64,000 nucleotides of DNA, from the IMG/VR virus record IMGVR_UViG_3300037067_012588; one strand, given 5' to 3'. The notes under the pieces were generated by a model. It made no database searches. It had not been told where the DNA came from and worked only from the letters and a program-made list of their open reading frames with translations. The stretch is from a virus (lineage: Duplodnaviria; Caudoviricetes). Positions 35,316-61,241 of this stretch are shown one piece after another. A program made the position numbers and the translations under genes. Within the stretch, counting starts at the first letter, position 1. Every line of letters begins with the position of its first letter.

Positions 35316-35936
35316 TTATTTTCGAGACACTAAGATAGAAGAAATGTTCGGAAGCTTTTCGTCCCATCGCCTACGAATGATGTCCTCAACATTCCCGCTG
35401 TCGATGTAACGACAACCATGATCTGAAAACCACTTTTGTATACCCGCCAAATTCAAACACCACAAATGCTCATTTGGCTTAAAGTGCCTCCAACCAACAA
35501 GTTCTGACGAATCAGCAACCTTTGGTGTTTCTGGAAAAGAAATAAATGCGTGATTCCACTTAAGCTTAAAAAGGTCTTCGATGTCATCAAAATGTTCAAG
35601 AACATCTGAAAGAACGACCAAATCCCATTCAGTTGTGTCCAATTTCTTTTTTGTAATACTCTCTCCGCTCAAATCAAATCCGACACATGATCCGAAAACA
35701 CTTTCCCCAACCTGAACAAACGTTCCATTGCCAGAACCAATATCCACAACCTTCATCTTCTTCAAAACAGGATACGGGAAATGTGCAGCAATCCATCCTA
35801 CTCTCAAATAAGACATGTCCGTGTTTGTTGACTGCGACTGTTTGTACTCAACACTGTATTCAAACGGCTCATTATCAAGTTGACGCCAAAATCCGTACTT
35901 ATCTTCACGGACAAACTGCGCATTTTTCTTATCCAC
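35316..35936 (-). CDS. class I SAM-dependent methyltransferase
   Basis: VVDIGSGNG, DLVVLSDVLEH, WRHFKPNEHL. Confidence 0.8.
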   Translation of the reverse strand: MDKKNAQFVREDKYGFWRQLDNEPFEYSVEYKQSQSTNTDMSYLRVGWIAAHFPYPVLKKMKVVDIGSGNGTFVQVGESVFGSCVGFDLSGESITKKKLDTTEWDLVVLSDVLEHFDDIEDLFKLKWNHAFISFPETPKVADSSELVGWRHFKPNEHLWCLNLAGIQKWFSDHGCRYIDSGNVEDIIRRRWDEKLPNISSILVSRK

Positions 35937-35958
35937 TATAACGCTCCCGCCAAAAAAG

Positions 35959-56600: not shown

Positions 56601-59600
56601 CTGATTGCGAGAATAAAGACTTTGAATACGAACAATGTCCAACGGTTTAATCCACATCATCACCGACAAAATCGAACTTGCAATGGTTGCAGAATATGAA
56701 CCACCATTGATATAAGAATTTGTTCCGTTCAACTGCAAACCAGAATCAACACGACCAATAACCCAATCGCAACCACTCTGACTCGCAATACAATTGTTCC
56801 CTGTTGCATCCTCAAGGTAATTTCCACTACCCTCCATCATTCTCCACCAAGCCTTCAAATGTGGATTTGACGATGAACTTGATTTCGAAGAGCTTGAAGA
56901 ATAGCTATTCGAACTGGACGAGCTACTCAGAGAACTACTGAAGCTCGATGACGATGATGAGTCTGATGATATGCTTTCGCTGGACGATGAAAAACTTTCA
57001 CTCAGTGAGCTTGAAGAACTCGACAGAGAATCGCTCAGTGATGACGAACTACTTTCGCTCATCGATGAACTACTAAAGCTTGACGAAAGAGACATAGAAT
57101 CCGAGCTTGACGAGTGCGAACTCGAAGAAAGCGAATACGAATAACTCGATGAACTTGAAGAGCTGCTAAAGCTTTCCGAGCTGGAACTGCTGGAACTGAA
57201 ACTGTCAGACAAACTGCTCGACGAAGAACTGCTTGAAGATTCAGAACTGGAACTGGAACTACTTGAGCTAACCAAACTCAAAAGACGATACGAGAATACC
57301 GTTCCTGAATTTGTTCCGTAATCATCGTCCCTGTACGCACCAACAATCGCAAAACGCCCAGCCATAGCAACAGCATTTCCGAAGTTGTCATTAGCCAAGC
57401 TCGAAATACCAACAAGTCGTGCAATCATCTCCCAAACAGATTCGTTTCCAGGTGTTTCGAACACATACGCCCCACCAACATTCGTGCGTCCCGACCAATC
57501 AGACAGTGGAGCACCAACCAAAAGCCACTGATCTTGAATCGATACCGATGCACCAAAACCATCCGCAGTTTGAGTCCCAGGAGTGCGAACAATACACATC
57601 TCAGTAAACAAATCGTGCGCTGGAACAGGAGTCCTGTTGCAGTGAATAACGTATACCTTGCCTGTCGCTACAGCCGAACCTCCAAACCCTCCAGCCCCAA
57701 CAACAAACCTATCATTTGCGTAATCGGTAGAAATTGCCGTTCCAAATCCATAGTTTGGCGCTGCATCGCTCGCAACAATAGGAGTTGTATTCTCATACCA
57801 CCATCCAAACCCATCGTTCTTATAGGCATATACTGCCCCACGAGCGCCAGACGTGCCTGGAGCGCCCACTAGAAAGCGGGAATCGCCATCAAACGCCACA
57901 GACGTACCAAAGGCGTCACCTTCAGACAAAGTGACAGGTTGAATCTTTTCAACAAGGAACCATCGCTCTATATTGAACGAAGAACTGCTCGAACTACTCC
58001 AACTCGACGATGACGAACTAAAGCTCGATGAAGACGAGCTATCACTTTCCGAAGAAGAACTCCAAGAACTTGAACTGAAAGAGCTTGAGCTGAAAGAACT
58101 TGAACTGAACGAACTTGAACTGAATGAACTTGAACTCGATGTTCCCCATATAGCTGGCGCTGGAGTAATCCACAGACGACCCGTACCAGAAGGACTTTGA
58201 AATGAGGGTGGATATCCGACCTTGACGATAAACGTTCCACGAATAGGAGCTTCCCAAACCAATGGATACCCGTACTCTCCATTTTTTATCAGATATCCTT
58301 CTTCATCATAAATGCCAACCTGCAGATAACCAACTTGAAGTCCACTTATTGCTTCTGGTCGGAACGTATAAACCGTCCCAAGTGATGTCTTGAAACGGAA
58401 TCCTGAAAGCCGATGAACGTTATCCGCAGGAATAACAAACTCAGCACTCGTCGCATAATCAATCCAGTCAAGATATCCCGAATACGAAGAACTCGAACTT
58501 GAACTCAAAGACAAACTAAACGAGCTACTTGAACTGCTCGACCATGCCTGTTGCAGAGGAGTAACAGCATTCCATGATTTTCCAATCCTGTACTCATCAA
58601 CACGCAACTCTCCACCATCAACCTGATAAGACGAAAAAGCCAAACGGTCAAAGGAGAGGTCTCCGTCAACCTCAACAGAAGAAAACGAAACTGTCGGTGT
58701 CGATTCAAGTGTCAAGTCTGATGGGTCAATAAATACATCAACCGTGTGCCCACCAGAACCGAACGTAACCTTCGCAACAACATAACGAACATTTGTTGTC
58801 TCTGTTCCAAGCGATTTACTCTTCAAGTCATCATTGAAAAGTCGAACCCCAAATACTCCGTTCGCTTTTCCAATCTGCAGAACCCGAGCAGAATCATCAT
58901 CTGAGTCTCGACGCAACTCTATGGCAGCAAAATCACCATCCACGTCCGACTTGAACAAACAACTCAAATAAACAACACGGTCAATTGCCCCGACATTGCC
59001 ATTTGCATCTACCAATCCATCCAAGAAGATATCCGAGGAAGACGAACAATCAATCTCTCGCTTGCATCGCCCGTCAGGCAGCTTCCCTACAGCACGACCT
59101 GTCAAAGCTGGACGATTAAATGCCTCATCGTGATACTCGAAATTATCTTCAAGAACATCCGCACCGTAATAATCACCAAATCCTTCACCTGCCCACGCAG
59201 AAGCCCACCCGAACCCTCCATTTTTTCCAGTGAGTCCAGAATGGTTATCATAAGCAAATGGCTCTGCAATATAAAGCCAATTTGAAGAGTCTGAAGAATA
59301 CGAACTCGAACTTGATGAGCTTGAGCTAAGACTATCACTGCTCGACGACCAAGACGATGAGCTAAACGATGAAGAACTTTCACTCGATGAAGAAAAGCTT
59401 TCACTCGATGATGAAAGAGAATTACTTGAGCTATCTGAGGAGCTACTTGAGCTGCTCGATGAAAGGTCCCTATGAAAAAGATAAACAGCACCTTTTCCAC
59501 CATCTACTCCAGGAGCGCCTATAGCCGCATAGTCTCCAGAAACGGCCACCGAACGCCCAAATTGATCTCCATCCACCAAATCAGCAGGAGCAAGCTTCGA

Positions 59601-61241
59601 TGTCTCAGACCAAGTGTCTCCATGTTTCGACTTACTGAAAATATAGGCTGCTCCTCGGTTATCCTCGGTATATGCTCCAGCAATAATTCTTGCCGCATCC
59701 ATACCAACAGAAGCACCGAAGTTTCCTCCCGTACCGTCATGGGTTATCAGCTTCGCAATCTGATACCAATCATCACCATATGTCCCAAACGAACGACGCA
59801 TGACATAGACAGCCCCAGCATCTTGATGCCCAGGCTGATCCTCACCATATGCCCCGACAACAAAGTAATCGCCAAAGGACGCCAATGCTGCACCAAAGTA
59901 ATCTCCAGAAGACTCATCAGAAGAATACAACTTCTTCTCAAGCGGAACAAATGACGATGACGATGAACTAAAGCTGCTTGAGCTAAAGCTATGTGAGGAT
60001 GATGACGAACTAAAACTCGAACTCGAAGATGAGGATACACTCTGAGAACTACTTGATGACGATAAGCTGTCGCTCGACGATGACGAACTTGAAAGTGATT
60101 CTGAATAGTTCGAAGAACTCGAACTGCTATTGCTATATGAATCACTCGATGAACTTGACGATGAAGAATCTGGAGTAAACTGAACGTACTCAGCACGGGT
60201 ACGCACGGTCCCAGTTTGGTCATCATAAGCCGCAGCAACTTGAAAATAATTCGTATCATTCACAAAATATGTCAGTGAGGCTTCGTCTCCAGAACGCTGA
60301 ATGTTTGCCGAATAATCAACAACTGCATCGAAATTTCCAATCTGAGTCCATGTCAACTCAGCAGATGGAGCTGTATCAATTCTTGGGGCAAGCATTCCAC
60401 GCAAGGCTTGTATTCTGAGCTTGCAGTCAACAACATCGATAGACTCTGCGTTCTCTTCATTGACTTTGACAAAATTCGGAGACCATTCAAACGGATCACA
60501 GAAAGAATAGAGCCGATGAAATACTCCCCAAGTCGAAGAAGAAGAACTTGATGAAGAAAAACTATCAGATGAAGACGATGAAAGGCTTATCGAATTGAAC
60601 GATGAGCTTGAAGAGCTAAAAGATGGGTGCATTGAGTCTGGCAAATCGCCATACAGGTAAATTCGTGTTTGGTCCCATGTCGCATGACCCTGACCTTTTG
60701 GAACAAACTCAGACCTTCTGACGCCGTAGACTCCAAAGTTTACTGTCTCACCCATAATCTTAAGGAACGACTCTGCAGGAAACTCCGATGTCTGATTTCC
60801 ATCCAGCGCAATAAAGATTTCTCCAGAATCCTCATCTTGTTCGACAATGAAAGCGTCAAAATTGATACCGTCATTCTCATTACCAAGAATCTGAATCTGA
60901 GAACCAAACGGATGGTCAACGTTCAGTTTTTCCGTGAAACGATATTCACCATCAGCGAGAAGAATTGTAACCATCTTCCCAAGTCCAACCGTTCTGTCTT
61001 TCAACCATTCAAAAGCACGATGCGGCGAAGCCCACGGGTTTTCCCGTGAGCCATCGCCATTGACATCATCACCATTTGGACTGATATGCAACAGAAGGTC
61101 GTCTTCAATGTTCCGAAGCGACGGCAGGAACGTAGCTGTTCCATTTTGCCCTGCATATACCCCGAACTGGTCGGTATTTTCTCCGGAGCTAATCCGTTTT
61201 ACATTTAGCCTAGCCATATTCCCTCGCCCACTATAGGACAC
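44688..61241 (-). CDS. giant poly-Ser fibre/adhesin-like protein (5517 aa): beta-helix, FG-GAP, LamG, collagen-like and Cys-rich modules
   Basis: Uninterrupted 16.5 kb ORF. ISPNGDD..GDGS..NPW beta-helix start; FG.SVA.....VGAP...GAVY repeats; W.HIA..R......F.NG...MDEIRI LamG motifs; about 17 Ser tracts. Confidence 0.85.
46565..46838 (-). repeat. Gly-Asp-X (9-bp period) collagen-like repeat
   Basis: [21 protein letters not shown]... followed by PEPP repeats. Confidence 0.9.
47260..47482 (-). repeat. second Gly-Asp-X repeat region (two short blocks)
   Basis: [14 protein letters not shown] and [32 protein letters not shown]. Confidence 0.85.

Follow-up and report, generated by a model that had tools for sequence, protein, structure and literature searches.

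The window described here is a stretch of 64,000 nucleotides from the virus record IMGVR_UViG_3300037067_012588 in IMG/VR (Duplodnaviria; Caudoviricetes), which derives from an uncultured phage with a contig of 344,634 bp (~345 kb). Positions 35316-44079 of this window hold a cluster of glycosyltransferase (GT) and methyltransferase genes that follows a giant poly-Ser protein. On balance, and with slightly better than even confidence, we regard the cluster as a phage kit for protein O-glycosylation, with the Ser runs of the giant protein as the most likely acceptors. We consider that the cluster most likely sugar-coats Ser runs because relatives of its enzymes repeatedly adjoin unrelated Ser-run proteins. 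The folds and families of the enzymes, the operon-like packing of the genes and a statistical association with poly-Ser proteins are established here.

The minus strand carries all long open reading frames (ORFs) of the window, including every ORF named in an earlier, sequence-only reading of this DNA (the original prediction), and each of those was found at its coordinates. Three genes are central to the argument:

44688..61241, minus strand: giant protein of 5,517 aa, the proposed acceptor, with Ser-rich linkers between non-Ser segments
43063..44079, minus strand: GT9-fold glycosyltransferase of heptosyltransferase type, 338 aa, assigned by fold and family profile
42273..43082, minus strand: compact GT9-fold transferase, 269 aa, with TibC as its closest structure

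Ser accounts for 1,319 of the 5,517 residues of the giant protein (24%), with more than 130 Ser runs of four or more residues. A sliding window divided the protein into 17 Ser-rich linkers, totalling 1,394 aa with 940 Ser and interrupted chiefly by F, L, D, E, Y and W, and 18 flanking non-Ser segments in which Ser is at an ordinary 9%. The C-terminal part comprises 1,194 aa, and Pfam detected FG-GAP repeats, four Laminin_G_3 domains and collagen repeats. Twelve same-strand ORFs follow the giant gene and occupy 44618 to 35316; gaps and overlaps between neighbours do not exceed ~70 nt, so that by its tight packing the cluster is operon-like. Promoter and terminator scans gave sites no more numerous than in shuffled sequences, and the operon reading is therefore taken from packing alone. 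The setting in a structural region, as originally proposed, is weakly borne out by tail and immunoglobulin (Ig)-domain PHROG matches downstream of the cluster.

The cluster proteins were scanned directly against Pfam, PHROGs and NCBIfam; these scans were nearly empty, so family-level and fold-level comparisons were used. The 338-aa enzyme (43063-44079) has more than 800 family members, with identities of 50-60% and in many cases from contigs of 100-460 kb; PF01075 (GT9) was matched by 15 of 24 aligned members (best E 1.2e-9). The protein itself has no Pfam match at E <=0.01, and no relative of it was found in the reference phage collection. A sequence profile of the family found no match in the PDB, so that only the fold search worked. 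The AlphaFold model (predicted local distance difference test, pLDDT, 91) retrieved GT9 structures with Foldseek at E 1.5e-10, and VIA-align gave Z scores of 17-23 for every GT9 structure against 11.1 or less for other GT-B families (3tov 22.8, WaaF 21.2, TibC 19.6 and WaaC 19.3, with 245-272 residues aligned). The model thus argues strongly for a GT9 fold. TibC, from Escherichia coli, attaches heptose to serines of the autotransporters TibA and AIDA-I, and its catalytic base is Asp-110 (PMC4358343). Among 24 sequences of the 338-aa family the pair G23-D24 is invariant and stands directly after the first strand of the model (12-17). Three Cys of the C-lobe (C270, C276 and C309) are likewise invariant, and three others there (C265, C271 and C295) almost invariant.

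For the 269-aa enzyme (42273-43082; model pLDDT 86) the top Foldseek match was TibC itself, at E 3.4e-7. VIA-align placed TibC first as well (Z 17.8, 252 of 269 residues aligned, root-mean-square deviation 3.5), followed by 3tov (16.0), WaaF (15.9) and WaaC (14.9), while the remaining families reached at most 11.5. This model, too, speaks strongly for a GT9 fold with TibC as the best match. The protein matches the family of the 338-aa enzyme (hhalign E 8.9e-4), and its only invariant Cys residues are the pair C104-C105, placed elsewhere than the C-lobe cluster. No membrane-like segment was found in the cluster proteins.

The association with poly-Ser proteins was examined in other phages. The GT9-like profile fetched 76 viral loci, to which two more were added; grouping of near-identical loci reduced these 78 loci (L numbers below) to 57. 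Control loci were fetched likewise through a PhoH-like gene and formed 51 groups. A poly-Ser ORF was required to have at least five Ser runs (strong) or at least three, and was counted when it lay within 10 kb of the GT9-like gene. Strong poly-Ser ORFs were present at 13 of the 57 GT9-like loci and at 1 of the 51 controls (Fisher p = 0.0012); with at least three runs the counts were 23/57 and 2/51 (p = 6e-6). The sole strong control locus is on a 436-kb contig that also carries a GT9-like gene. On this contig Ser-run ORFs occur at two sites ~60 kb apart (L144:11127-13910 and L025:7781-9886), and one of them lies directly upstream of the GT9-like gene on the opposite strand. The C5 methylase of the cluster, tried as a control query, fetched one locus only.

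Whole contigs of four carriers of GT9-like genes (G001, G002, G004 and G005) were also read. In both G001 (complete, 204 kb) and G002, poly-Ser ORFs are followed directly, on their own strand, by a second GT9-like gene, which in G001 matches PF01075 at E 7e-12, and G004 encodes proteins with 47% and 55% Ser. Three large phage genomes without a GT9-like gene (925 kb in total) contained no strong poly-Ser ORF; they do hold giant ORFs, of 4,407 and 3,114 aa. The proposed co-occurrence of poly-Ser proteins and GT clusters was thus found at the level of loci, and the genome level agrees. A reverse search, started from one domain of the giant protein, found no relatives. A quick maximum-likelihood tree built from the GT9-like domain has 15 poly-Ser-adjacent tips; adjacency requires 13 changes on it, of which supported branches force at least 9, and the adjacent loci hold Ser-run proteins of different families. 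The pairing is therefore not a single inherited block and recurs with unrelated proteins.

The GT9-like clusters of other phages contain GT4, GT2, GT8, UDP-glucose/GDP-mannose dehydrogenase and several methyltransferases. Two of their genes bear on the sugar donor: a PfkB kinase whose best PDB match is D-beta-D-heptose 7-phosphate kinase (4e84, E 3.8e-29; the next sugar kinase at 3e-7), and an epimerase that best matches ADP-L-glycero-D-manno-heptose 6-epimerases (3sxp, E 1e-32). These HldA-like and HldD-like genes lend support to ADP-heptose as the donor of the GT9-like family. The ADP-heptose donor originally suggested for the window gains accordingly from its relatives; no such gene was found among the scanned ORFs of the window itself (26-45 kb). 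In L046 the heptose-7-phosphate kinase-like gene and the ADP-heptose epimerase-like gene flank a cupin protein (8175-8792) that has sugar isomerases among its weaker PDB matches and could take the place of a missing isomerase step.

Fusion proteins in the relatives support the coupling of glycosyltransferases to methyltransferases. One 835-aa protein (L002:2187-4691) combines a class I methyltransferase, a GT9 domain and a Methyltransf_24/O-methyltransferase domain, three activities that are separate genes in the window; this triple fusion lies 7 kb upstream of an 882-aa ORF with 72% Ser. In L075, GT9 is fused with GT2. A protein of 1,090 aa (L040:15329-18598) has five parts: a domain like that of 36855-37607 in the window, a TRM5/TYW2-like methyltransferase, an FkbM methyltransferase, a cytidylyltransferase-like domain and GT6. 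L050:15248-16192 encodes a class I methyltransferase with a C-terminal ParB_N, a domain commoner on DNA-acting enzymes, inside a glycosylation-type cluster.

The relatives are also linked to virion genes. In L046, L048, L050 and L058 the cluster begins directly after a Mu gpT-like major capsid gene. Just upstream of the capsid gene in L050 (6503-7000) and L053 (3824-4354; the same in L054) is a protein of ~145 aa with a poly-Ser C-terminal tail like the linkers of the giant, and its homologs in L046, L048, L051 and L058 have no poly-Ser tail. The position of this protein is the usual place of a head-decoration gene, and the family offers a natural comparison with and without the tag. Such loci bear on a second explanation, in which the kit glycosylates virion proteins at other residues or on other proteins (capsid, decoration or tail) and the Ser runs are flexible spacers. 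L046, L048 and L058, in which the cluster follows the capsid gene with no poly-Ser ORF near, fit this explanation, as do most GT9-like loci in having no such ORF nearby; moreover, according to the passage of PMC12619734 that cites them, published mycobacteriophage glycans are on the C-termini of capsid and tail-tube subunits. The strong enrichment of poly-Ser adjacency, repeated with unrelated proteins, weighs against mere spacers, as does the poly-Ser tail on the protein upstream of the capsid gene itself in L050 and L053/54. We consider this second explanation unlikely, and prefer glycosylation of the Ser runs.

The remaining genes of the cluster are:

41621..42262, minus strand: GT25-like protein, a marginal call (PF01755, phrog_2835)
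40350..41639, minus strand: C5 cytosine DNA methyltransferase (PF00145 E 1e-37; phrog_116 E 1e-85)
39789..40340, minus strand: Methyltransf_24-like small methyltransferase, paralog A (hhalign)
39227..39850, minus strand: Methyltransf_24-like small methyltransferase, paralog B (hhalign)
38364..39248, minus strand: probable GT-A (GT2-like) protein, from look-alike clusters and a fused homolog
37571..38374, minus strand: probable GT-A protein, with an invariant E-D-D-Y motif and a look-alike cluster
36855..37607, minus strand: 250-aa domain of a large unnamed family, with GT9-like motifs below significance
35959..36900, minus strand: GT8-like glycosyltransferase (PF01501 in the family, GT8 match in the PDB, D-A-D motif)
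35316..35936, minus strand: class I S-adenosylmethionine (SAM) methyltransferase, Methyltransf_23 (PF13489 E 4e-11; phrog_6564 E 3e-14)

The protein at 35959-36900 has no Pfam match alone, and 4 of 14 members of its family match PF01501 (best E 1e-5). D114-A115-D116 is invariant, and the family profile finds GT8 entries in the PDB, 3tzt and 6mw5 as well as the best match 5gvv (E 1.2e-5), which we take to be pneumococcal GlyE; with moderate confidence the protein is GT8-like. GlyE, a GT8 enzyme, glycosylates the serine-rich protein PsrP (PMC12656782). The GT25 assignment of 41621-42262 is marginal: PF01755 matches residues 10-50 only, at E 3.4e-5 and 24.2 bits (cut-off 24), phrog_2835 (glucosyltransferase) matches at E 1.2e-4, and a PDB sequence search gave no match.

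Neither 38364-39248 nor 37571-38374 has a Pfam match, and both are leads. The former is probably a GT-A, GT2-like protein, its Atlas look-alike clusters (score 0.98) having PF00535 in 11-26% of members and hhalign relating it to a GT2 family at E 0.006. A homolog, P0125 (469 aa), carries a fused N-terminal GT2 domain, the sole family-level link to glycosylation. The latter is probably GT-A as well (60% of the proteins in its Atlas look-alike cluster, score 0.97, carry PF00535; hhalign matches it to the GT8 family at E 0.002; weak PDB profile match to SunS, E 0.16). Its letters DDD...EDDY were considered as a motif of JGT-like DNA glycosyltransferases (Pyle et al.) and not adopted, since conservation is limited to E-D-D-Y and 8 residues separate the two acidic groups. 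For 36855-37607, which belongs to a family of 1,860 representatives, the hhalign match to the GT9-like profile is colinear over 189 columns and non-significant (E 0.067 with 3 sequences, 0.011 with 38); a PDB profile match to quinolinate synthase (E 0.0097) looks spurious.

The paralogs at 39789-40340 and 39227-39850 share 66% identity and match a PF13578-bearing neighbour family of related loci (hhalign E 4.4e-5). The listed ORF of 39227-39850 begins 24 codons ahead of the similarity to its paralog, with a 62-nt overlap with the upstream gene, and Met25 is probably the true start. Together with 35316-35936, these genes support the presence of three small-molecule-type methyltransferases in the cluster. 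Homologs of the enzymes recur among the 78 GT9-like loci: of 42273-43082 in 14, of 35959-36900 in 11 and of 35316-35936 in 15, where some are fused to the GT9-like domain. No homolog of the C5 methylase (40350-41639) was found in these loci; this gene is probably outside the glycosylation function, as an unrelated insertion.

The original prediction counted about seven GT genes, among them three of GT9 type. Two GT9 folds and one GT8-like enzyme hold, GT25 is marginal, two GT-A calls are leads, and the third GT9 call (36855-37607) is non-significant. Its three small methyltransferase-like genes are supported by PF13489 and the Methyltransf_24-like pair, and its statement that genes for nucleotide-sugar synthesis are lacking agrees with the scanned ORFs between 26 and 45 kb of the window, where none was found. 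Its list of glycosyl- and methyltransferases was sound, except that the C5 DNA methylase in the middle of the cluster had been omitted.

Several observations weigh against glycosylation of the Ser runs. About three quarters of the GT9-like loci lack a poly-Ser ORF within 10 kb; in G005, which is 89% complete, none occurs anywhere. The control loci are mostly of one phage lineage, and the control genomes number three. Three of the seven glycosyltransferase calls are lead-level or non-significant, and the giant is a candidate virion protein by its context only. In VIA-align, lipopolysaccharide (LPS) heptosyltransferases fit the 338-aa enzyme no worse than TibC does. Finally, a C5 cytosine methylase stands mid-cluster beside GT25-like and GT-A-like genes, which makes DNA hypermodification the main rival.

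On that rival, all or part of the cluster would modify the phage DNA: the C5 methylase would form 5-methylcytosine, an oxidase would convert it to 5-hydroxymethylcytosine (5hmC) and the transferases would add sugars. Known C5-MT/5mYOX/GT clusters, in which sequential GT-A enzymes (some GT8-like) and epimerases glycosylate 5hmC (bioRxiv 10.1101/2023.12.21.572611), provide a precedent, and one neighbour methyltransferase family of related loci has a ParB_N domain. Among the 12 cluster ORFs, however, no match to Tet_JBP or another 2-oxoglutarate (2OG)-dioxygenase was found at E <=0.01 (Pfam, PHROGs), and the C5 methylase is absent from the related loci while GT9, GT8 and methyltransferase genes recur. 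The DNA-acting GT-B enzymes of that preprint, moreover, resemble T4 beta-GT and not GT9, and a heptosyltransferase appears in it only in the reference list. DNA hypermodification would also leave the adjacency to poly-Ser proteins unexplained. We consider it very unlikely.

The structural likeness to LPS enzymes raises another rival, remodelling of the LPS core or capsule of the host during infection, for example against superinfection or to free progeny from receptors. GT9, GT8 and GT25 are classical LPS-core families, and WaaF, WaaC and a Veillonella GT9 protein are the structures that fit the 338-aa model as well as TibC. Such remodelling would leave unexplained both the enrichment beside poly-Ser proteins and capsid genes and the fusion to O-methyltransferases, and the position of the cluster within a late, structural-type block also weighs against it. 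We give envelope remodelling the same low probability as DNA hypermodification.

For the preferred reading, glycosylation of the Ser runs, we infer the acceptor, the donor, the order of steps and the effect on the particle as follows. In the cytoplasm of the infected cell, one or both of the soluble GT9-fold enzymes (43063-44079 and 42273-43082) would place a first sugar, most likely heptose from ADP-heptose, on the hydroxyls of linker Ser residues. The GT8-, GT25- and GT2-like enzymes would then lengthen the glycan, and the three small SAM methyltransferases would O-methylate the sugars. A virion-associated fibre would thereby gain an extended, mucin-like coat that resists proteases. The interpretation originally given to this region is thus upheld in part: the identities of the glycosyl- and methyltransferases, the TibC-like fold, the co-occurrence and the coupling of the two enzyme types are supported, while the C5 methylase brings in the rival of DNA hypermodification.

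A broader proposal, to which we assign somewhat less than an even chance, is that this is a case of widespread and undescribed phage protein O-heptosylation. TibC-/WaaC-like GT9 enzymes, extension transferases and O-methyltransferases would turn the Ser runs of virion proteins into a methylated mucin-like brush (here on ~940 linker Ser), and poly-Ser would be a portable glycosylation tag, not a mere spacer. A search of the full-text literature turned up no account of a GT9/heptose system in phages that is linked to poly-Ser proteins. If the proposal is true, the Ser runs of phage structural proteins are glycosylation tags for a dedicated, widespread enzyme family, which would explain the puzzling low-complexity giant proteins of large phages. 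Virion glycosylation would reach well past the mycobacteriophages, and protein O-heptosylation would have a second natural setting. It would also provide a simple, portable enzyme-tag pair suited to laboratory E. coli, which makes ADP-heptose. A glycan coat on the virion matters for how stable the particles are, how they adsorb and how defences or grazers recognise them.

One further gene of the operon-like block was found next to the giant:

44088..44618, minus strand: Cys-rich protein of 176 aa, between the giant and the first transferase, without family match

Scans of this protein against Pfam, PHROGs and NCBIfam were empty. G001 and G002 encode small proteins where this one stands, which show no homology to it and were rejected as counterparts. 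Directly upstream of the giant are two Kelch beta-propeller proteins (61318-63276, Pfam E 1e-65; 63294-63995, E 3e-26), the second of which extends beyond the window edge. In L046 the large protein upstream of the capsid module (1-2469) has LAGLIDADG and LigD 3'-phosphoesterase-type matches and is possibly encoded by an intein-bearing gene.

Virion glycosylation in mycobacteriophages has reportedly been described by Freeman et al. in Cell Host Microbe in 2023. The likeness to the present system is in phage transferases encoded beside structural genes and in C-terminal acceptor tails, which resemble the poly-Ser tails of L050 and L053/54. The systems differ in that the window has enzymes of GT9 heptosyltransferase type, long Ser-run acceptors including the 5,517-aa protein, and probably another host group.

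Phage C5-MT/5mYOX/GT clusters (Pyle et al., bioRxiv 10.1101/2023.12.21.572611) likewise combine a C5 methylase with several GT-A-like transferases. GT9-type enzymes are absent there, whereas in the cluster described here no TET-like oxidase was found and the methylase is not conserved in related clusters. The serine-rich repeat adhesins of Gram-positive bacteria (GtfA/GtfB, and GlyE acting on PsrP) are similar in their adjacent set of transferases and dense O-glycosylation of Ser tracts, and share the GT8 match 5gvv with the GT8-like family of the window. They differ in that family scans of the cluster found neither a GT4 pair (GtfA/GtfB) nor accessory Sec (SecA2/Asp), and in that glycosylation here would start with an enzyme of GT9 type.

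The bacterial autotransporter heptosyltransferases (BAHT; TibC and AAH; PDB 4RAP/4RB4; PMC4358343) have the GT9-type GT-B catalytic fold in common with the two transferases. They are also soluble cytoplasmic enzymes encoded beside their protein substrate, as would be the case for the candidate acceptor here, and hyperglycosylate many Ser residues. TibC has a four-Cys iron finger in its C-lobe (Cys-339, 342, 358 and 370), of which the Cys cluster of 43063-44079, at a similar relative position, may on the ground of that position be the counterpart. The N-terminal beta-barrel of BAHT (TibC residues 1-97) is without counterpart, as the 338-aa model aligns with TibC 84-395 only; TibC has 406 residues, and enzymes of 338 and 269 aa are too short for the extra barrel. 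The BAHT acceptor is Ser on a folded autotransporter beta-helix, whereas disordered Ser runs are proposed here and no autotransporter is present. The BAHT enzymes form ring-shaped dodecamers. Since they lack the N-terminal beta-barrel and would act on something other than an autotransporter helix, the cluster enzymes would work in the manner of BAHT without belonging to that family; unlike BAHT, they are phage-encoded and accompanied by extension transferases and methyltransferases.

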